Shown: positions 3,284-14,123 of the stretch, piece after piece | Position numbering within the stretch: position 1 is the stretch's first letter | Layout: every line of letters begins with the position of its first letter | Assembly (NCBI GenBank): GCA_038229915.1 | Contig: JBBRNY010000001.1 | Location: 33,693 to 97,692, forward strand | DNA: 64,000 bases | Reading direction: 5' to 3' | Source of the DNA: Candidatus Kapaibacterium sp. | GTDB taxonomy: Bacteria > Bacteroidota > Ignavibacteria > Palsa-1295 | Made by a program: the position numbers and the translations under genes | The notes under the pieces: generated by a model | Databases searched by the model: none | Seen by the model: the letters and a program-made list of their open reading frames with translations, nothing else | What the model was told of the DNA's origin: nothing

Positions 3284-4656
3284 TGCAATACAACGAACAC
3301 TATCATCCATCAAAACCGTCGCCGATGTCATCGGCGCCAATGATCGGCGTGCCGGCAATGCTCGAACCGAGTAGGATCATTGTTGGTCTCGATATCGGCA
3401 CCACCAAAGTGTGCGCTATCGTTGCCGCGGTCTCTCTGAACGAGCCACATTCGATGACCATCCTTGGTGTCGGCACAGTTGCCGCCGATGGGCTGTCACG
3501 CGGAGTTGTGACGAACATTGATAAAACTGTTCGCTCGATAGAGCGTGCTGTTGCCGAAGCCGAGGCACAGTCGGGCGTAAAGATTCGCGAAGTGGTTGTT
3601 GGTATTGCGGGCGATCACATCCAATCATTCCAATCACGCGGTGTAGTGACGATCTCGAATCAAGATCGTCAGATCCGCCCCGAAGATATAGGGCGTTTGC
3701 TCGAAGACGTGAAGCGTATTCATCTGCCAAGCGACAGAAAGATCTTGCACGTGATCGCACAAGAGTTTATTGTTGACGGACAAGACGGATTTTACGAAGA
3801 ACCTGTCGGAGTCTCGGGCGTTCGTCTCGAGGCTACTGTTCACGTGATCAATGGCTTGGTTACTGCGGTGCAAAATATTTATAATTGCGTCGAGCGCGCG
3901 GGTTTGCGCGTTCACGACATTGTACTCGAACCACTTGCATCAAGTTATTCGGTTCTTGATGAAAAGGAAAAAGAAGCAGGCGTTGCACTCGTTGATATTG
4001 GTGGCGGCACAACTGATATTGCCGTCTTTGAAGAAAAAACTATTCGACATACGGCAGTGATCGGTATTGCCGGGCAAAAAGTGACTGAAGATATTCGCCG
4101 TGGCTTACAAATTCTTGGCGATCAGGCTGAGCGTCTCAAACGCGAATACGGTTGCGCTGTAGTGTCGCATATCGTTCGCGATGAGATCATTCAGCTTCCG
4201 GGTCTTGCCGGTCGTAAGCCGCGCCAGATACCACGTTCGCTCCTTGCACGTATTATCCAACCGCGTATGGAAGAAATGCTCGAGTTCTCGTATAACGAGA
4301 TCAAGCGTTCAGGTTTTGCGAGAAATCTTGGCGCCGGTGTCGTTCTGACTGGCGGAGGTTCGATGATCAATAGCACTCGCGAACTTGCCGAAGCTATTTT
4401 TAATATGGATGTCAAGATCGGAATGCCGATGAGTTTCGGCGCCGGGCTTGTCAAAGAGATCGAATCGCCGGTCTATGCCACTGCGGTCGGGCTGGTGTTG
4501 TATGCGTTCAAGAATTGCTCCCCAAGCTCATTGCCATCGTTCGTTGAAGAAGAACGCTCGAGCAATCAGCACGAAGAAGAATACATCGAAGATGAAGAGT
4601 CGCGCGAGAAACCGAACGTCATTGAAAAAATGAAACGTTGGTTTGAACATTTATAA
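3283..4656 (+). CDS. ftsA: cell division protein FtsA
   Basis: IVGLDIGTTKVCAIVA actin-like phosphate-1 motif and VDIGGGTTDIAVF. The ATG overlaps the ftsQ stop (ATAATG). An internal Met near 3358 (MLEPSRIIVGLD) is an alternative start. Confidence 0.9.
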   Translation: MQYNEHYHPSKPSPMSSAPMIGVPAMLEPSRIIVGLDIGTTKVCAIVAAVSLNEPHSMTILGVGTVAADGLSRGVVTNIDKTVRSIERAVAEAEAQSGVKIREVVVGIAGDHIQSFQSRGVVTISNQDRQIRPEDIGRLLEDVKRIHLPSDRKILHVIAQEFIVDGQDGFYEEPVGVSGVRLEATVHVINGLVTAVQNIYNCVERAGLRVHDIVLEPLASSYSVLDEKEKEAGVALVDIGGGTTDIAVFEEKTIRHTAVIGIAGQKVTEDIRRGLQILGDQAERLKREYGCAVVSHIVRDEIIQLPGLAGRKPRQIPRSLLARIIQPRMEEMLEFSYNEIKRSGFARNLGAGVVLTGGGSMINSTRELAEAIFNMDVKIGMPMSFGAGLVKEIESPVYATAVGLVLYAFKNCSPSSLPSFVEEERSSNQHEEEYIEDEESREKPNVIEKMKRWFEHL

Positions 4657-4696
4657 TAATTTTTATACACGTTAGTATTTGTTGGAGGATAGAACA

Positions 4697-6184
4697 ATGA
4701 TCGAACTCGATAGCAAAGAAGATTACGGCGCCAGAATAAAAGTCATCGGTATCGGCGGCGGCGGATCAAATGCCGTCAACGCGATGATCGACCGCGGACT
4801 CATCGGCGTAGAGTTTTGTGTGCTCAACACAGACATCCAAGCCTTGCAAGCTTCAGCGGCATCGCTGAAATTGCAGATCGGCAAACACCTCACTCGTGGG
4901 CTCGGTGCAGGTGCAAACCCTGACATTGGTCGTCGCGCTGTCGATGAAGATCACGAAGAAATTTCGCGATTGATCGGCAATAGTGATATGGTCTTTGTCA
5001 CTGCAGGTATGGGCGGCGGCACTGGTACCGGTGGCGCAGCACGCGTCGCGCAGATCGCCAAAGAGTGTGGTGCGCTTGTCGTAGGTATTGTCACTAAGCC
5101 ATTTCTTTTTGAAGGGAAGCGTCGTTTTCAACAAGCCGAAGACGGCATTCAAGAACTTCGCAAAAATGTTGATACGCTGATCGTTATTCCAAATCAAAAG
5201 TTGTTGGCACTTGTCGCTGAAAGCACTTCGCTACTTGACGGATTTGAAATAGCAAATCAAGTCTTATACAATGCTACTCGTGGCATTAGCGAACTCATTA
5301 CTCGTCACGGACATATCAACGTCGATTTTGCAGATGTTCGTACAGTAATGACCGATATGGGTGATGCCATTATGGGTGCCGGAGTTGCAAGCGGTGCGCA
5401 CCGGTCGGCAATTGCTGCTGAGAATGCGATCAGTTCTCCATTACTCGAAGGTGTTTCGATCCAGGGTGCACAAGGTGTCTTGGTAAATATCACTGGCGGG
5501 CGCTCGATGACACTGCTCGAAGTCAGTGAAGCAACGCAGATCATTCACGATGCAGCGGGCGACGACGCAAATATTATCTTCGGCGCTGTGCTCGATGAAA
5601 CGATGGACGAAGAGATCATGGTCACCGTGATCGCAACAGGATTTAATAACAAACCGACATTCACCGGGTTTGCAATTCAAGATAAAAATACTGTTCCATT
5701 CATCCCTGCCGAAGAAGCTCTCGGAGCAAAGCAAAAGCCATCGGTCGTGAGAATGACTCAGCCTATCAGTGCTGATGAATATGAAGCTCGAAAGAAGATC
5801 ATCGCTTCATCCCCACATCAGCATGAGCAGCACGAAGAGATGATCGCTGATGCGCAGCCGAAAGTTGAGCGTATGTCCAGAGGTACACTCGGCGAACGTG
5901 AAGAAAGCCCGAATGCTTTTGACCGTCTATCGGCAGGGGCGTTCCGTGCTTCGTCGATCAGATTGACACCTCAGAATGAAACATCACACGTCCCAAGCGG
6001 ACCGCGTGACCTGAAAGAATATGATACACCGGCGTATTTGCGTCGTGGTATTAATATCCCGACCATCGAAGAGCAAGAGGTCTCCGTCGAGCAAGAGCAG
6101 CCAGTATTTGAAGATAGCTATACTGCCGCACCTGTTCGCGAGCGCGACGACCGCCCGACGTTCTTAAGAAAAATTATGGATTGA
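4697..6184 (+). CDS. ftsZ: cell division GTPase FtsZ
   Basis: GGAGGA ribosome-binding site 7 nt upstream of the [20 protein letters not shown] and [11 protein letters not shown] are tubulin-like GTP motifs. Long disordered linker and a C-terminal [10 protein letters not shown] peptide. Confidence 0.95.
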
Positions 6185-6202: not shown

Positions 6203-6535
6203 ATGATACAACATTCAATGACATCTACCACATTTGATATCGAAGGATACAAAGTGGTAAAAACATTTGGTATGGTGCGTGGCATCATTGTGCGGTCACG
6301 TTCGGTGATCGGCAATATTGGCGCCGCATTTCAGATGTTCGTCGGCGGTAACATTAGCATCTATACCAAGCTGTGCGAGGAAGCACGCGAGCATTCATTT
6401 CAGTTGCTTCTCGAACACGCTGACTCGATGGGCGCGAATGCGATTATCGGCGTTCGCTATGATGCAACCGAGATCGCCGCAGGAGTGAGCGAGGTTCTTT
6501 GTTACGGAACTGCCGTGATGGTAGAAAAGAAATAA
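6203..6535 (+). CDS. ybjQ: YbjQ/UPF0145 family protein
   Basis: 110 aa; YKVVKTFGMVRGIIVRSRSVIGNIGAAF...GANAIIGVRYDATEI...VLCYGTAVMV matches the YbjQ (DUF74) fold signature. Confidence 0.85.
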   Translation: MIQHSMTSTTFDIEGYKVVKTFGMVRGIIVRSRSVIGNIGAAFQMFVGGNISIYTKLCEEAREHSFQLLLEHADSMGANAIIGVRYDATEIAAGVSEVLCYGTAVMVEKK

Positions 6536-6607: not shown

Positions 6608-8236
6608 TTATTGGCGAATCACCAAAACATTAAATCTCTCGCCGTTCGGGATATTGGTTGCTTGATCTTCGAGAAATATTTCCCAACGATTTGCTGCGCC
6701 ATTCCATTGGACACCGTAACCGAGTCCGTCAAACACACCACCACCAAGATTTTTCTTGAGCGGTGCCGCTACTGATTGATGAGTGACAAGCACAATATCG
6801 CTCTGGAGCATTCCGGGATAATTTAAGAATGTCACCCACGGGGAATTTGCGATAATATTTGCGGCTCCGACTGTATGAACATAGGCGGTTTTAGAATTAC
6901 CACCAACTTTAATAAAGCCATTATCAATATACAAAGATGTTCCGCTGGTACTGTTACCACTGTATCCGGCTTTCACACCGACACCGGTTGCGCTCTCGCC
7001 ATAAACTCCTGCTGCCGAAGTACCTGTCGAGCTGAGGCCATGAACACCGTAACCGTTACTGAGTGTAGATAGTCCTTGCACACCATCCCCTGCGCTTGAT
7101 GTCCCGGCGACGCCGATCGCTACATCAGTTGTTCCAAAGACACCAATTCCTGTTGAAACAGTTGGGTTTGGTCCGCTATTGCCGACAAGCCCATACACGC
7201 CGATATTTCCACTCGACCCGTACACACCTTTGCCGTTGTTATCGCTGCTAAAACCCCAAACACCATTGACTCCGGTACCTTTTATACCGACACTGCCATT
7301 TGTATTAGTAATAGACATTGATGGGCTTGGCGAGTTATCACTTTGTACAAAAGGCAAAGAAATGGTGACATTCGTTGGCTCCCATGAATTATTAGCGGCA
7401 TTCCAAATAAGTGCTTGCGTGTTTTGTGGCACGTTCGCACTGACATTAAAATTTCTGATCTTCGCAACATTCGGATTTGGATAACTACCGATCAAGTCAC
7501 CATTTGCTGGTCCCGTCGGTGGCAGCTCTATCGGGATTACTCCTGGAGCAATTTTGAAAAGCGTTACCGAACTATCAGTGATCTTTTGAGTACCTATTGA
7601 TCCATCGGTGACACTAAGAGTTGCCACGGGGCCGTTTGCATTGAGAACTGTAATACTTCCATCGGTATTTTGGACGCCCTGTACACCGCTTGCACCAGCA
7701 CCACCGCTCGAGCTGATCGTGATCTTTTTTGTTGCGACATCTTTATTGATGGTCGTCGACCCACCACCCACGAGCACTACATCGCCAAGAAGTGCATTCA
7801 AACTTGAGACCCCAGCAGTACCACCACCGCCACCGACAACACTGCCAGCCACATCGGCATAAGAAGCGCGAAGTGCGTACGGAGCCGATACTAATGCCGT
7901 TCGTGGGCTGAGTTCTGTGCCGCCATCGACACTCACTCCGAGAAAATATGCACGATCAAATGCTACGGTCACAGGAATTTCTGTCACTGAACCAATGATC
8001 GCATTGAATATGCCTTTAACAACTGGCACTGTTTGAACTTCAGTGAAGATCGCCACAGCACCCGAAGCACTTTCATAGAGCTTAAGAGTTAGTTGATGAT
8101 TCCCGTTCGGGATCAAATTCCCTGACGCATCGCTCAGAACACCCTGATAACTTATCGTGCGTGGGATCTGTGCAAAAGCTGTTGCCGATGACAACGACAA
8201 GAGTATGAGAAAACAAAATGTAGCAACGTGTTTCAT
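6608..8236 (-). CDS. secreted Gly-rich repetitive protein (beta-helix/tail-fibre-like surface protein)
   Basis: Signal peptide MKHVATFCFLILLSLSSATAFAQ. N-terminal ISYQGVLSD...LTLKLYES...FTEVQTVPVVKGIFNAIIGS module resembles the conserved head of FCB-group tail-fibre-like proteins. About 140 aa of Gly/Ser/Val periodic repeats (GVYGSSGNIGVYGLVGNSG, GVFGTT..GVAGTS..). No T9SS C-terminal domain. Confidence 0.6.
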   Translation of the reverse strand: MKHVATFCFLILLSLSSATAFAQIPRTISYQGVLSDASGNLIPNGNHQLTLKLYESASGAVAIFTEVQTVPVVKGIFNAIIGSVTEIPVTVAFDRAYFLGVSVDGGTELSPRTALVSAPYALRASYADVAGSVVGGGGGTAGVSSLNALLGDVVLVGGGSTTINKDVATKKITISSSGGAGASGVQGVQNTDGSITVLNANGPVATLSVTDGSIGTQKITDSSVTLFKIAPGVIPIELPPTGPANGDLIGSYPNPNVAKIRNFNVSANVPQNTQALIWNAANNSWEPTNVTISLPFVQSDNSPSPSMSITNTNGSVGIKGTGVNGVWGFSSDNNGKGVYGSSGNIGVYGLVGNSGPNPTVSTGIGVFGTTDVAIGVAGTSSAGDGVQGLSTLSNGYGVHGLSSTGTSAAGVYGESATGVGVKAGYSGNSTSGTSLYIDNGFIKVGGNSKTAYVHTVGAANIIANSPWVTFLNYPGMLQSDIVLVTHQSVAAPLKKNLGGGVFDGLGYGVQWNGAANRWEIFLEDQATNIPNGERFNVLVIRQ

Positions 8237-8420
8237 ATCTTTACAATTTAAATTTTCACCACAATTCGATAGGTAAGATGCGAGCAAGAGTAATCCAATC
8301 GAAGCTACCCGTTTTTACTTTCGGATCTCTTCGGTTGAGCTACGGACAAGACGCCTTACCACAAGGCAAAAACACCTTATTCTTTAAACGACTGATCAAA
8401 TCAGTTTGTGACAGGAATCT

Positions 8421-8457
8421 TTAAAAAAGAAAGGCGGACTTAGAGTCCGCCTTTTGA
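8421..8457 (-). terminator. rho-independent terminator for the lipoprotein gene
   Basis: GGCGGACT, TAG, AGTCCGCC stem with flanking A/T tracts. Read on the minus strand it is a hairpin followed by UUUCUUUUUU. Confidence 0.7.
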
Positions 8458-8476
8458 TACAACTGATGATATCCTC

Positions 8477-9199
8477 TTACTTTTTGAGGTTCTCATCCTT
8501 CCCGAGGTCCCACTGCATAATATATCTGCCGCGTTGGTCGTACCAATGGCCGTGGTCTTCCGGTGCGCCGGGTCCGGTGGATGGGGCACTCGATCGACTC
8601 AGGAGTTGAAGATTTGAAATTTCGGTTGATGCATCATAGATCGTACGTTGAAGGATCAGTCCAAGATCGCGAGCAAAGAAACGAACAACATAACTGCCGT
8701 CGCTCTTGGTATTGTCGATATACTTGACTGCAACAACATCATGAATAACCTCCTGATGTCCGGGTAGGTAATAATCTGTATATCTTCCGACAACCGTTGC
8801 TTCGATCTGATCCGATTTATCGGCAAACCATTTCGAGCCAACAGAAAGATCACCTTGTAATGCTATGGTCCCTTGGTCAGAGCCCGTCTCGGAGAGAATG
8901 CATTGTTGAATTCCTGCATTGGAAGAACCAACTTTGTAGTAGTAGAGCACCGAATTATTAGTACCCGTGTCCTTTTTTATAAGCTTTGCATAACTGTCAT
9001 ACGCCACACCGACAATGATCTGATAGGTTGTGGTATCTGTGACAGTTGTCGTGCCTTCGGAATAGACATACTGGGTGCCGTTGACCGTAGGGAAAAAATA
9101 CTGGTCGGCAGGTGCATTTGCCGGAAGGCTTGGGCTTGTCGGGGCGTTACAAGAAGCAAGGAATATTCCAAGGAAAAGAAAAACCAGATTTTTTTTCAT
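8477..9199 (-). CDS. hypothetical lipoprotein
   Basis: MKKNLVFLFLGIFLASC lipobox. 240 aa, Thr/Tyr/Gly-rich, beta-rich. Confidence 0.6.
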   Translation of the reverse strand: MKKNLVFLFLGIFLASCNAPTSPSLPANAPADQYFFPTVNGTQYVYSEGTTTVTDTTTYQIIVGVAYDSYAKLIKKDTGTNNSVLYYYKVGSSNAGIQQCILSETGSDQGTIALQGDLSVGSKWFADKSDQIEATVVGRYTDYYLPGHQEVIHDVVAVKYIDNTKSDGSYVVRFFARDLGLILQRTIYDASTEISNLQLLSRSSAPSTGPGAPEDHGHWYDQRGRYIMQWDLGKDENLKK

Positions 9200-9257
9200 A
9201 CTAATTCCTCCTCAAAAATTCACACTGCTATTTAGTTAGTCCTACACAAGCAATGCT

Positions 9258-10583
9258 TTAAAAGTGGAAATAAATCCCGGTTGAGATCTCCACGTTTAAG
9301 TTTGCTTTGTCATCGGTCACCCCAGGCGCAACACCTGTTCCGGCATTAAAGCTACTGCTGGTAATAATATCTTGGTATTGTGTTGCCACGTTGCTATTGA
9401 TCCTCGAACCACGGAGCCCGAGCAAGACACCAACATCACCCGTTACATCATATCGAACGCCAAGCTCAGAGCTGATGATCGGGCCGAGGGTCGAAGCAGC
9501 AAGCCCGACATTTGCCGCGAAGGTAAGTCTTGAGCTGATCGGTTTGCGATACTCAATAAGACCACCGCCCCAGACAGTCTGTTCGTGAACGAGATCACTA
9601 ACGATCTGATATTGCAATAGCGGAGCATTTGGATCAACAAACGTGGTGCTCAATTTTTTCTGCGTGACGTTTGCAGTGCCGAACGATGCGCCAATCCAAA
9701 ACTCCGGAGTGAGTTGATACTTCAAACTAATATCCGAGTTGGTAATGATCGGCATCGAAGTGTTGGTAGCAGCGGTATTCGGAAATTGTTTTCCGATACC
9801 TTCGTGTATTGCGAAATCAAAACGCTCGAGGAATCTCGGTGAATGTGTTTGCATCACGCCGCCGATACTTGGGTGTTCGCGCTGAGGGGCATTCGGATCG
9901 CGAATAAAACTAGCACTGGCTATTAGTGGTAATGCTTGCGGTATCTGAGTCAAACGCTGACGATCAATGAGCACCGGAAGAAGATCGACCGACAGATCCG
10001 AGCCGTTTGCTAATTGAGGTGTCTCTTGTATTAGGGGCGCTCCGATTGACTGGCGGTTAATATTTACTTCGCGACCACGTTTCTGCGAGTTCAAAATTTC
10101 CGAATTTCGGGCAACGATATTTGTGCTTGATGGTGTAGCCGTCTGTTGTCCGACATTCTCAGAAAGAGATTGTTTGATTTGTGAATCTGGGATAGTAGAA
10201 AGTTGTGAAGAATTATTTCCGCTCCATAATAAATAACCGGAGCTAAGCCCTATTAACAGGGCGGCGACCGCAACCGCACTCATTCTCCAAACACTTGAAG
10301 CAAGTATCCCTGTGCTTGTTGCAACACTTGTCGCGACCGGAACAGCTGAAACGACCGGCGACATCGCGCCGATAGCAGCCCATAATTTTTGTTCGGCTGA
10401 ATATGGCACAACGATCGCACTGCGATCGGCGCTGATAATTGCCGACTGCTTCATATAGCTACGTAAGATCTCGCGACGTTCGGGCGAAACCGAAAGTCGG
10501 TGCAGCAATTCCGCTTCCTGATCGCCGGAAAGACTTCCGTCGAGGAATTGTTGAAGCGACTCTGAAATATTTTCCATTCCCAT
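9258..10583 (-). CDS. membrane-anchored anti-sigma factor with C-terminal OMP beta-barrel-like domain
   Basis: Immediately downstream of the ECF sigma gene. N-terminal cytoplasmic anti-sigma-like helix (ESLQQFLDGSLSGDQEAELLHRL), a single TM (MSAVAVAALLIGLSSGYLLW), a Ser/Asn/Gln-rich linker, then about 150 aa of alternating-hydrophobic beta-strands ending GIYFHF (OMP_b-brl-like). Confidence 0.6.
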   Translation of the reverse strand: MGMENISESLQQFLDGSLSGDQEAELLHRLSVSPERREILRSYMKQSAIISADRSAIVVPYSAEQKLWAAIGAMSPVVSAVPVATSVATSTGILASSVWRMSAVAVAALLIGLSSGYLLWSGNNSSQLSTIPDSQIKQSLSENVGQQTATPSSTNIVARNSEILNSQKRGREVNINRQSIGAPLIQETPQLANGSDLSVDLLPVLIDRQRLTQIPQALPLIASASFIRDPNAPQREHPSIGGVMQTHSPRFLERFDFAIHEGIGKQFPNTAATNTSMPIITNSDISLKYQLTPEFWIGASFGTANVTQKKLSTTFVDPNAPLLQYQIVSDLVHEQTVWGGGLIEYRKPISSRLTFAANVGLAASTLGPIISSELGVRYDVTGDVGVLLGLRGSRINSNVATQYQDIITSSSFNAGTGVAPGVTDDKANLNVEISTGIYFHF

Positions 10584-10609: not shown

Positions 10610-11200
10610 TTATTGTTCGTCTCGATAATATGGCTCTAATATTTTGCGAAGTTCTTCGCGAGCCCGATATATTCTACTTTTGACTGCGGCGATCGTCAGT
10701 TTCATAACCTCGGAAATTTCCTGATAGCTCAACCCCTGATATTCGAAGAGCACAAACGGCTCGCGATTTTCTGGCGGTACTTGCTCGAGCGCAGCCTGTA
10801 TTCTGGCTGCCCAATCTTCTCCCATTTCCGGATTACTCGAACTGAGACTGATATAATTATCAATGCTATCATGATCTTTACGATCGCGAATTCTATTGAG
10901 GCAAAGATTGTGAGCGATCGTAAATATCCAACCGGAAATACTTTTTTCTTCGGTGAATTGATAGGCTCGCTGCCACACTCTGATAAACACTTCTTGAAAT
11001 AGATCTTCAGCTTCTTGAGCATTGCCGAGCATTCTTAGGCAATAGGCATAGACCCTCTGGCGGTAGCGAAGGTACAGCTCGGTAAATGCCTCACGCTTTC
11101 CTTCTCGGAATGCGCGAAGCAACGCAATCTCATAAGACTGATCCTGTTCGTTCGGACCTATCCCAGAGCGTCTTTCCACTGTTTGTAAAGCTGGTGCCAC
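10610..11200 (-). CDS. ECF-type RNA polymerase sigma-70 factor
   Basis: Region 2 (YLRYRQRVYAYCLRMLGNAQEAEDLFQEVFIRVW) and region 4 (LSYQEISEVMKLTIAAVKSRIYRAREELR) motifs. The ORF has no ATG near its 5' end; a GTG/TTG start is likely. Confidence 0.85.
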   Translation of the reverse strand: MAPALQTVERRSGIGPNEQDQSYEIALLRAFREGKREAFTELYLRYRQRVYAYCLRMLGNAQEAEDLFQEVFIRVWQRAYQFTEEKSISGWIFTIAHNLCLNRIRDRKDHDSIDNYISLSSSNPEMGEDWAARIQAALEQVPPENREPFVLFEYQGLSYQEISEVMKLTIAAVKSRIYRAREELRKILEPYYRDEQ

Positions 11201-11239: not shown

Positions 11240-11268
11240 ATAATAAAGCAACACCATAGGAGAGTCAA
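11240..11268 (-). promoter_or_regulatory. putative sigma70-type promoter for the ECF sigma / anti-sigma operon
   Basis: Read on the minus strand: TTGACT, 17 nt, TATTAT, about 35 nt upstream of the sigma start. Confidence 0.45.
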
Positions 11269-11328
11269 AGTTGCAAGACCAAAAGCACTTATTTACACCT
11301 AATACGGTAACTCACTTAATATCAATGA

Positions 11329-12246
11329 TTAACCGTTGATATTTATCGCCGCCCTCACAAAGCCGTCTGCATCTGCAATAAGCTTCTTGGCTTCTTGTGG
11401 GCTTACTGATCTTTTCTGCATTACGATAGCGCTCTTGACGTGATTGCCGCTGGTCTTTAATAACTCGGCTGCTTTCTCGTACTCAACTCCTGTTGCTAAC
11501 ATAATTATACGTTTTGCCCGCTCGCTGAGTTTCTGATTGGTGAGTTGGAGATCGACCATCATATTTTCATACACTTTTCCGAGACGAACCATCGTCGTGG
11601 TCGTGATCATTGTTACGATCATTTTTTGTGCTAATGCTGATTTCATTCTTGTCGAACCCATCAATACTTCGGGACCAACGACAGGACAGATCGCTTCGAA
11701 TAAATAACTCGTATCAAGACTTTCGCGTGGGTTAGTCGTGATTAGGACAGCCGCGGAACCCAATTCCGACGCCTTCTTCAGAGCTCCTATCACAAATGGT
11801 GTGCGTTTGCTGGCGGCTATACCAATGACCATATCTTTATCACTACACCGTTGCAATGCAATTTCGAGCCCACCTTTTTCGCTGTTATCTTCAGCGCCTT
11901 CTTGCGAACGAAACACTGCATCTTTTCCGCCGGCAATAATAGCTTGTATCTGGGCAGGGCTTGTCCCAAAAGTCGGCGGACACTCCGCCGCATCGATCAC
12001 ACCCATTCTGCCACTGGTGCCGGCACCAACGTAAAATAATCTTCCGCCATTCGAAAGAAGAGAAACAAGTTTGTTCACTACTTTTTCGATCTGCGGTATC
12101 TCCAGTTTCACCACCTGCGCAACTTTGGCATCTTCATCATTGATGAGCTTCAAGATTTCGCCCGTGCTCATCGTATCCAAGTTCATAGAACTTGGATTGC
12201 GTTGCTCAGTTGCAAGGTTTGAGACTTCCGTAAATAGCTCTGTCAT
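11329..12246 (-). CDS. murQ: N-acetylmuramic acid 6-phosphate etherase
   Basis: SIS domain LFYVGAGTSGRMGVIDAAECPPTFG. 305 aa. Confidence 0.85.
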   Translation of the reverse strand: MTELFTEVSNLATEQRNPSSMNLDTMSTGEILKLINDEDAKVAQVVKLEIPQIEKVVNKLVSLLSNGGRLFYVGAGTSGRMGVIDAAECPPTFGTSPAQIQAIIAGGKDAVFRSQEGAEDNSEKGGLEIALQRCSDKDMVIGIAASKRTPFVIGALKKASELGSAAVLITTNPRESLDTSYLFEAICPVVGPEVLMGSTRMKSALAQKMIVTMITTTTMVRLGKVYENMMVDLQLTNQKLSERAKRIIMLATGVEYEKAAELLKTSGNHVKSAIVMQKRSVSPQEAKKLIADADGFVRAAINING

Positions 12247-12293
12247 ATACTATAAATAAAATTGTTTTTATTGATATTAATTTCCACGTGGAA

Positions 12294-14123
12294 CTATCGT
12301 AAAGACCCCACGAGAATTGAAATATCCGTTGGTGATACTCCGGGAAGTCTCGAAGCCTGTCCGATGGTTTCCGGTTTCACTTTTTCCAGCACTTCCCTTG
12401 CTTCGGTGCTCAGTGCTTTCAAGACCTTGAACGACAAGCCGATAGGTATCTTTTTGCTTTCATGCTCGCGAAGTTTTTCTATCTGATTCTTATGCTGTTT
12501 GATGTAGCCTTCATATTTGATCTCAGTATTCGCAAGTAATAATAGCTCCTCATTACAAGATAATAAAAGCTCTTTACCACTTTCATACTGCTCGAGCAGG
12601 TCTTTGATAGACGTACCTGTGGTAACGATATAACTCTTGATGGTCTGTTTGAGAGCCGGATCAGATGGTGTTGCGATCTTCTCCTTCTCAGACCATGCGA
12701 TCAACTTATCTAATAGCTCTTGCTTCCTGAGTACTCTATCATGGGCTGATTGATCGATCAAGCCAAATTCGAAAGCTTTCTTTGAGAGTCTCAGATCAGC
12801 ATTATCCTGCCTTAAGATAAGACGATGCTCGGCGCTCGAAGTAAAGAGACGATACGGCTCTTCCTGTATTTTATTTATAAGATCATCAATAAGCACCCCA
12901 ATATAGCCTTCGTCGCGAGATATAGTAAATTCGGGCATCCCTTTTATTTTTGCCGCGGCGTTCACACCTGCTACTATACCTTGGGCTCCAGCCTCTTCAT
13001 AACCCGAAGTACCGTTTATCTGCCCTGCAAAATAAAGGTTTTGAACATGCTTCGATTCAAGCGTATGAAAAAGCTGGTAAGCAGGAAAATAATCATACTC
13101 CACTGCATAGCCCGGGCGAATCATCACCACATTCTCAAGACCTGGCACTGTTTTTAATGCCACTAATTGGATATCAGCTGGAAGACTTGTCGAAAAGCCG
13201 TTCACGTAAACGACATCGCCGTCAGCTTCTTCGGGTTCGAGAAAGAGGTGGTGTTGGGTCTTATCCGGGAAGCGAGTTACCTTATCCTCTATAGATGGGC
13301 AGTATCTTGGCCCCTTACCGTGAATAACGCCAGTAAACATCGGCGACTCGGCAAAACCTTTAGCTAGCTCGGAGTGCGTTACTTCCGACGTGTAGGTAAT
13401 GTAGCAATGTATCTTATTCTTAATTTCGATATCCGATCGAGAAGAAAATGGGATGATCTCGTCATCACCTTGCTGTATCTCAAGATTTTCGGTATTGATG
13501 CTCTTCAAAGATATTCTTGGCGGAGTTCCGGTCTTCAATCTATAACTAACAAGGGACAATGCTCCATCGGGTTCTGTTCGCAATGAAGTTGGTTCTTCCC
13601 CAAACCGTCCACCAATTGTCTGGTTCAATCCGGTGTGCATTACCCCATTAAGAAATGTGCCTGCGCATATAATAACAGCCTTTGCAGTGAGTTTAGTACC
13701 ATCCGAGAGTACTACACCCTTCACTTGTCCACCAATTATCCATATTTTATGCACGTTGGCACTGACAATCATATCAGGATCAAGTTCACGAAGTTTGCGC
13801 TGAGCAATGATCGGGTACTGACTTCTTGAGACTTGGGCACGGGGCGACCAGATAGCAGGACCTTTGGATTTGTTGAGCATTCGAAAATGAAGCATTGCTT
13901 CATCAGCGATCTCACCCATTAATCCACCGAGCGCGTCGATCTCTCGCACGACCTGTCCTTTTGCTGTCCCACCGATAGCGGGATTACAGGAAAGCTCCCC
14001 TACTTTATCGGCGTGCAAAGACAATAGCCGAACCTTCAGCCCCATCCGATGGGCTGCCGATGCCGCTTCGATGCCGGCATGACCGCCACCAACTACGATA
14101 ATATCTGCGAATGGCTGTTCCAC
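12294..14123 (-). CDS. mnmG: tRNA uridine 5-carboxymethylaminomethyl modification enzyme MnmG (GidA)
   Basis: [20 protein letters not shown]-binding motif. 609 aa, adjacent to mnmE. Confidence 0.95.

Follow-up and report, generated by a model that had tools for sequence, protein, structure and literature searches.

Dual-membrane anti-sigma factors of Bacteroidota

The Dma family of anti-sigma factors in Bacteroidota was described in 2024 by Pardue et al. (PMC10927553) and has been studied experimentally in the pair Dma1 (BT_4721, WP_008766767.1)/Das1 (BT_4720) of Bacteroides thetaiotaomicron (PMC10927553), the pair Dma2/Das2 of the same species being characterised later (PMC13088901). In the current work, a gene at positions 9258 to 10583 of a 64,000-nucleotide (nt) stretch of Candidatus Kapaibacterium sp. 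DNA (assembly GCA_038229915.1, contig JBBRNY010000001.1, positions 33,693 to 97,692; this whole stretch is named the window) was compared with these systems. As judged from structure prediction, the gene very probably encodes a single-chain anti-sigma factor which has its anchor in the inner membrane and terminates in a beta-barrel of the outer membrane, and its best explanation, to which we assign a probability of roughly 0.7, is a divergent dual-membrane anti-sigma factor of the Dma type, known here from its sequence and predicted structure.

The first 40 amino acids (aa) of Dma1 bind Das1, and full-length Dma1 carrying both an N- and a C-terminal tag was found in membranes during exponential phase, while outer-membrane vesicles contain only the barrel fragment (PMC10927553). 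C-terminal Dma1 fragments of ~20 and ~17 kDa are abundant and the full-length protein is lost in stationary phase, this growth-phase dependence suggesting proteolytic control (PMC10927553). The family has been reported only in Bacteroidota (PMC10927553, PMC13088901). The same layout had been proposed earlier for Reo/EcfO of B. fragilis (PMC10927553) and for an anti-sigma factor of P. vulgatus, whose pair M0N98_03760/03761 has a regulon induced by cell-envelope stress and a sigma gene which is 33-fold self-induced (PMC9308784).

An earlier note on this DNA, made from its sequence alone, had considered such an architecture to be uncharacterised, a view which has to be withdrawn, given that it was proposed for Reo and the P. 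vulgatus protein and then studied as Dma (PMC10927553, PMC13088901); the likening of the protein to FecA and FecR within one polypeptide was also drawn by the Dma authors (PMC10927553). Since the architecture is already published, the window protein is a divergent addition to the Dma type rather than a protein of a new kind.

The gene, its homologs and the division of its product

9258..10583, minus strand: gene of the predicted Dma-type anti-sigma factor, 441 aa, ATG start
10610..11200, minus strand: gene of the ECF (extracytoplasmic function) sigma factor, 196 aa, starting at a GTG where relatives have an aligned ATG

The open reading frame (ORF) at 9258..10583 is a genuine gene rather than a chance ORF, because of its homologs and its constant position behind a sigma gene. 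Thirty-nine homologs, of which 38 are full length, were retrieved at E <= 5e-51, and an exhaustive HMMER search in a space of 1.8 billion cluster representatives returned 247 representatives matching the protein at E <= 1e-3. The earlier note had placed the gene directly downstream of the ECF sigma ORF; it starts 26 nt downstream of it on the same strand, and a sigma gene is found directly upstream in 20/20 loci examined (17/17 close and 3/3 distant). The sigma factor itself is recognized by Pfam (Sigma70_r2 at 4e-21, Sigma70_r4_2 at 9e-17) and by the NCBIfam model TIGR02937 (106.6 bits, the cut-off being 42.9), and is 57-96% identical to its counterparts in 17 related loci.

Residue conservation was derived from a 40-sequence alignment, and an AlphaFold2 (AF2) model built on the same alignment divides the protein into four parts, namely an N-terminal domain, a transmembrane (TM) helix, a tether and a barrel. 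The translation, ending in ...STGIYFHF, contains all three peptides quoted in the earlier note, and the parts that were recognized there can be found again: the cytoplasmic anti-sigma-like N-terminus and the one TM helix hold as described, the low-complexity periplasmic linker is likewise present with a length of ~130 aa instead of ~70 aa, and the C-terminal OMP (outer-membrane protein)-type barrel comprises ~187 aa instead of ~150 aa. This predicted architecture was upheld in each of the computational tests that were run on it.

N-terminal domain and transmembrane helix

10359..10583, minus strand: predicted N-terminal cytoplasmic anti-sigma domain, aa 1 to ~75, four helices
10224..10283, minus strand: predicted single TM helix, aa ~101-120

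The N-terminal domain is modelled as four helices (aa 4-14, 20-32, 34-57 and 61-72) and its near-invariant core is EAELLHRLSVSPERR. When a profile of the N-terminal part, made from the close and the distant family, was compared with PDB sequences, the best match was E. coli RseA-N, which is the domain that binds sigmaE (1or7_C, E 0.006), the alignment spanning the conserved (L/M)DG..L...ELL.EL...PE motif, while the full-length profile returned noise only from the PDB sequences (the TM region against butyrophilin). The NCBIfam 'antisigma' model NF052375 matches the window protein with an E-value of 2e-5, which is below its cut-off, and Pfam recognizes zf-HC2 in 9/24 and RseA_N in 6/24 relatives. 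The domain contains no Cys and is therefore not a zinc-binding anti-sigma (ZAS) domain. Based on these profile matches and on the invariable position after the ECF sigma gene, it is accepted as a class-I, RseA-like anti-sigma domain, which by analogy would bind the co-encoded sigma factor. The TM helix corresponds to a 20-residue hydrophobic stretch, MSAVAVAALLIGLSSGYLLW, with R100 on its N-terminal side, and lies within an AF2 helix covering aa 97-123, in which G112 and G116 are conserved.

A tether of constrained length

9822..10223, minus strand: predicted disordered periplasmic tether, aa ~121-254, rich in S, Q, N and P
10032..10040, minus strand: conserved A-P-L island in the tether, aa 182-184, within the motif [E/G]APL at about aa 180-184

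The ~130 aa following the TM helix are modelled with a predicted local distance difference test score (pLDDT) of 30-47, the AF2 model being disordered over roughly aa 120-245, and their alignment columns have the highest entropy in the protein (2.1-2.9 bits, versus 0.35-1.3 in the N-domain). Their number is nevertheless kept between 122 and 159 in 39/40 homologs, with a median of ~135, and this narrow range in spite of free sequence drift suggests that tether length is under selection. The contour length of ~130 residues is near 45-50 nm, and the envelope spacing of Gram-negative bacteria is generally 20-30 nm, so that the tether would be long enough to cross the periplasm.

One small exception to this drift is the [E/G]APL island, present in 38/40 homologs with A182 and P183 at least 90% conserved, and located 46-124 aa past the TM helix and 66-100 aa ahead of the barrel. 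Another patch (R-D-P ... P238-F), which is semi-conserved, lies just ahead of the barrel, and both are candidate sites for a protease or a binding partner, as judged from their conservation.

The tether is where an alternative to a membrane-coupling protein is to be weighed, according to which the barrel reaches the outer membrane and the tether is cut constitutively shortly after export, leaving an RseA-like stub and a separate small OMP with no coupling between the membranes. The abundant C-terminal Dma1 fragments and the disappearance of full-length Dma1 in stationary phase (PMC10927553) agree with this, and processing could take place at the conserved [E/G]APL island. However, full-length Dma1 with both tags was detected in exponential phase (PMC10927553), a tether constrained in length and not in sequence suits spanning better than it suits a disposable connector, and the N-domain and the barrel are still fused across a very divergent family. 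Constitutive cleavage is therefore considered improbable, and a tether that stays intact until a signal arrives is preferred.

The C-terminal barrel

9261..9821, minus strand: predicted beta-barrel of eight strands at the C-terminus, of the outer-membrane type, aa 255-441 (~187 aa)
9261..9284, minus strand: C-terminal beta-signal-like motif S-T-G-I-Y-F-H-F, aa 434-441

The C-terminal domain is modelled by AF2 as eight long strands with a pLDDT of ~80-95. In strands 5-8 the hydrophobic face (mean Kyte-Doolittle value of +1.6 to +2.4) is variable and the polar face is conserved, the latter bearing the invariant residues E373, R391, N430, E432 and G436; going by sequence, this pattern is that of a lipid-facing exterior around a conserved polar lumen, the reverse of what is expected for a soluble barrel. 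Strand lengths are fixed across the family and, going by the inferred topology, each of the three turns on the periplasmic side has 4 aa in the window protein, while the last extracellular loop (L4) is of 30-35 aa across the family.

The aromatic-x-Phe terminus that had been pointed out in the earlier note is a family trait: N430, G436 and F441 are invariant in the 40-sequence alignment, and among the C-termini of 139 full-length relatives Phe is the last residue in 114, Gly is at -6 in 120, and the pattern Gxx[hydrophobic]x[FYW]-COOH is present in 106. The sequence of this C-terminus fits the beta-signal of the barrel assembly machinery (BAM).

Matches to described barrel families appear among the relatives. 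When 26 of these were analyzed by their barrel only, OMP_b-brl (PF13505) was recovered in 6/26 (best E-value 3e-4) and OMP_b-brl_2 (PF13568) in 1/26 (E 0.078), with single weak matches also to PagL and Autotransporter, both being outer-membrane barrel families. A search with a mixed barrel-only profile gave three matches, none of which is annotated. The small eight-stranded outer-membrane barrels (the OmpA N-domain, OmpW, NspA, PagL and OprF-N) are 8-17% identical to the window barrel and their Pfam models miss the window protein; in contrast to the latter, they are free-standing and have a cleaved signal peptide. A hidden Markov model (HMM) of the barrel was run against the last 210 aa of 88 distant relatives and matches 45/88 at E <= 1e-3 (the best reversed-sequence control reaching 0.017), and an HMM of the N-terminal part matches 88/88; therefore, the N-domain and the barrel have been inherited together.

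The best-conserved stretch of the barrel domain, EGIGKQFPNxxATNxSxPxxTN (window 9708-9803, minus strand, aa 261-292), represents the predicted extracellular loop L1, which has a fixed length of 11 aa and an entropy of 0.77, with the flanking strand ends. AF2 confidence is low in this stretch (pLDDT ~58, and below 50 at aa 273-275). The conserved L1 could be a site for a ligand or partner, or a loop that is folded into the lumen.

Comparison with Dma1 and other sigma/anti-sigma systems

The window protein has the same four-part architecture as Dma1, an ECF sigma gene is adjacent in one operon, an adjacent gene encodes a lipoprotein of ~240 aa (NigD2 beside das1-dma1, an unrelated-looking lipoprotein in the window), and both hosts belong to the phylum Bacteroidota. 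Of the features of the Dma family, ECF-sigma adjacency, an anti-sigma domain, a single TM helix, a disordered tether, an eight-stranded barrel of the outer-membrane type and the phylum are predicted here, and the barrel is not recognized by Pfam OMP_b-brl_2; a cognate sigma factor of group ECF21 is a further feature of the family. By its modelled architecture the protein thus fits the Dma family as its authors define it, Dma1-3 being compared by description only, and it may be either a divergent ortholog or a separate branch. It differs from Dma1 in having a full RseA-like four-helix anti-sigma domain of ~75 aa, whereas for Dma1 the first 40 aa were assayed, in a downstream lipoprotein devoid of a NigD signal in Pfam, and in its host, an uncultured Kapaibacterium lineage. 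No Bacteroides protein was among the matches of the window family in any homology search, and the genome scan gave only loci of the Kapaibacterium type.

Reo/EcfO and the P. vulgatus pair also consist of a sigma factor and a large anti-sigma factor described as 'unusual', for which a periplasm-spanning chain with an outer-membrane barrel at its C-terminus is predicted; they differ in being orthologs of Dma1 within the Bacteroidales, with known regulons (oxidative stress, O-antigen length and NigD proteins). The rpoE-rseA-rseB operon of E. coli has the same gene order of sigma factor, anti-sigma factor and periplasmic beta-rich partner, RseA-N (1or7) being the best PDB match of the N-domain and the model of the third gene product being weakly similar to RseB (2v42/2v43), and release of sigma by regulated proteolysis is a likely further likeness. 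Membership of the RseA family (PF03872 RseA_N plus PF03873 RseA_C) was rejected, given that neither model matches the window protein and that its C-terminus is a predicted barrel. With FecA-FecR-FecI the locus shares the logic by which an element of the outer membrane would be linked to an anti-sigma factor of the inner membrane and to an ECF sigma factor, and it differs in that receptor and anti-sigma factor would be one chain. FecR-type membership was likewise rejected, since no FecR (PF04773), TonB-dependent transducer or STN domain is present in or beside the gene, and its neighbours (MurQ-like, MnmG, lipoprotein and fibre-like protein) include no TonB-dependent receptor.

Proposed mechanism and the case against it

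In the proposed mechanism, the RseA-like four-helix N-domain would sequester the co-encoded ECF sigma factor on the cytoplasmic side of the inner membrane, the TM helix would serve as an uncleaved signal anchor, the disordered tether would cross the periplasm, and the eight-stranded barrel, delivered to BAM by way of its beta-signal, would sit in the outer membrane. A disturbance of this membrane, of the barrel or of its surface loops would trigger proteolysis of the tether and then intramembrane cleavage (regulated intramembrane proteolysis), upon which the freed sigma factor would transcribe its own operon from the motif GCAACTT-N13-GTGTT, as well as a further regulon. The domain architecture, fold class, co-inheritance of the domains, conservation of the operon and promoter motif were computed here, and from the precedents of Dma1 and RseA we infer sigma binding, residence in both membranes, the proteolytic trigger and the signal.

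A number of results weigh against this assignment. Dma1 is annotated with OMP_b-brl_2 (PF13568) and the window protein has no such Pfam match; indeed, no Pfam OMP model matches the window protein (E <= 1) or its barrel alone (E <= 10), and NCBIfam likewise gave no match in the C-terminal part. The inward- and outward-facing pattern is not clear-cut in strands 1-4, and lipid-facing residues were deduced from residue alternation only. Within the barrel domain, conservation is highest in a predicted extracellular loop, which is uncommon among OMPs for a part exposed at the surface. Finally, the sigma factor scores below the cut-off of the Bacteroidota-specific NCBIfam models (TIGR02985, 115.8 versus 126.4 bits; NF058625, 109.9 versus 130 bits).

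If the C-terminal domain were instead a soluble periplasmic eight-stranded barrel of the avidin, lipocalin or YceI type, acting as a ligand sensor on a flexible stalk, then the protein would be a conventional anti-sigma factor of a single membrane. The variable hydrophobic face and conserved polar face of strands 5-8 are the opposite of those of a soluble barrel, and a soluble periplasmic beta-sandwich, the outcome by which the earlier note would have given up its proposal, was not obtained. By sequence and model, an outer-membrane-type barrel appears much more likely, and we consider the soluble one as improbable as constitutive cleavage. That the fusion is an artefact of assembly or annotation, two adjacent genes having been read as one ORF, was considered since the window probably stems from a metagenome-assembled genome, and is refuted by an uninterrupted ORF and by the same domain order in 38 full-length homologs and ~100 distant ones from independent assemblies and sources.

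Promoter and operon

11250..11274, minus strand: putative autoregulated promoter of the ECF type, with the conserved motif GCAACTT-N13-GTGTT, upstream of the sigma gene
8477..9199, minus strand: third operon gene, lipoprotein, 240 aa, lipobox L-A-S-C17
8430..8454, minus strand: intrinsic terminator, 11-bp stem with 6 GC pairs followed by a T-run, 22 nt past the lipoprotein stop codon

The operon consists, in this order, of the putative ECF-type promoter, the ECF sigma gene, the anti-sigma gene, the gene of a ~240-aa lipoprotein and the intrinsic terminator. GCAACTT-N13-GTGTT is the single sharply conserved element in an alignment of 18 sigma-upstream regions, with an exact match once per locus in 17/17 related loci and once in the window (18/18), always upstream of the sigma gene; further copies with at most one mismatch were not found in the window. 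An AAC...GT layout is typical of ECF promoters. Because of this layout, the three-gene operon is probably autoregulated from the conserved motif, a reading that agrees with the P. vulgatus counterpart, whose sigma gene is strongly, 33-fold, self-induced (PMC9308784).

A sigma70-like match, TTGACT-17-TATTAT (10/12 positions), is present at window positions 11240-11268 on the minus strand and overlaps the ECF-type motif. It was set aside as the promoter in favour of the ECF-type reading, given that the other loci have not kept its hexamers, and it may have arisen by chance or be a second promoter specific to the lineage. The distant relative L019 carries AAC-N15-GTGTT at 3395-3417, 34 nt upstream of its sigma gene, with the same spacing as the window motif. 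The same locus has a second pair of a sigma factor and a 472-aa protein at 8222-9254, ~3 kb downstream; therefore, sigma/Dma-like pairs can be paralogous within one genome. In the window, no second Dma-like gene was found.

The trio of sigma factor, anti-sigma factor and lipoprotein is kept in 16/16 evaluable related loci, while the flanking genes vary. In the window, the operon sits between the end of a cell-division cluster (ftsZ at 4679-6184 and a YbjQ-like gene at 6203-6535, plus strand) and murQ-like (SIS/GKRP) and mnmG genes (11329-14123, minus strand). This housekeeping neighbourhood is common to the related locus L001 and not to more distant loci, and the trio therefore moves as a unit. 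Just past the operon terminator, at 6608-8287 on the minus strand, a gene encodes a fibre-like protein of 559 aa which is rich in Gly, Ser and Thr and has a signal peptide; the NCBIfam model Bdello_MAT_N, which stands for a 'mosaic adhesive trimer' fibre, is matched by its N-terminus (E 1e-7), while a weak similarity to DUF7452 is seen at the C-terminus. Such a gene is located downstream of the operon only in the nearest relatives (L001, L005 and L006).

The lipoprotein as a possible third component

Cys17 of the lipobox is invariant, and the model of the third gene product gave weak structural matches of the RseB/MucB/LolA kind; it is tentatively taken as an all-beta protein with a LolA/RseB/YmcC-like fold. 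No literature was found on 4fvs or 3fzx. A NigD-like identity was rejected at the Pfam level, with no NigD_N or NigD_C match in 11 homologs at E <= 10. A gene for a lipoprotein of ~238-246 aa with a signal peptide and Cys also comes directly after very distant sigma/Dma-like pairs (L018, 5308-6024; L020, 2309-3049), and these two lipoproteins have no detectable homology to that of the window (HMM E > 0.09). Because of these genes and of NigD2 beside Dma1 (PMC10927553), Dma operons may recurrently have a lipoprotein of ~240 aa as their third component.

A further-reaching proposal, which we regard as doubtful, is that the conserved trio combines the designs of sigmaE/RseA/RseB and of Dma into a hybrid, in which a lipoprotein gate, a tether ruler and a loop site would act jointly. 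The LolA/RseB-like lipoprotein may bind the tether, for example at [E/G]APL, and gate its proteolysis upon mislocalised lipid or lipopolysaccharide (LPS); the length-constrained tether may act as a ruler or tension sensor of the distance between the membranes, such that blebbing or detachment of the outer membrane pulls on the anti-sigma factor; and the conserved predicted surface loop EGIGKQFPNxxATNxSxP may be a site for a ligand or partner.

Distribution

Among 14 loci from species-representative genomes, eight are labelled Candidatus Kapaibacterium sp., four are Bacteroidetes/Bacteroidota or Ignavibacteriae metagenome-assembled genomes, one is named only 'bacterium' and one (L006) is labelled 'uncultured Alphaproteobacteria', the last probably being a mislabelled bin. 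Cluster names of the distant relatives are only 'bacterium' and 'Candidatus Kapabacteria', and NCBI taxonomy places Kapaibacterium in Bacteroidota, class Eximiradiia. A tblastn search of plasmids gave no match.

Significance

The 247 cluster representatives constitute a family in a deep-branching, uncultured Kapaibacterium lineage of Bacteroidota. Its value is comparative, in that it offers a large divergent branch which is not covered by Pfam, a length constraint on the tether, the APL island and a conserved predicted surface loop, and its constant lipoprotein partner is a candidate third component for comparison with Dma. If the hybrid of the sigmaE and Dma designs were true, then Dma systems would in general be three-component systems, as the lipoprotein genes after the distant pairs and NigD2 next to Dma1 would indicate. 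This family can serve three questions on Dma, namely what is sensed by the barrel, at which site the tether is cleaved, and how BAM receives a chain that has its anchor in the inner membrane.

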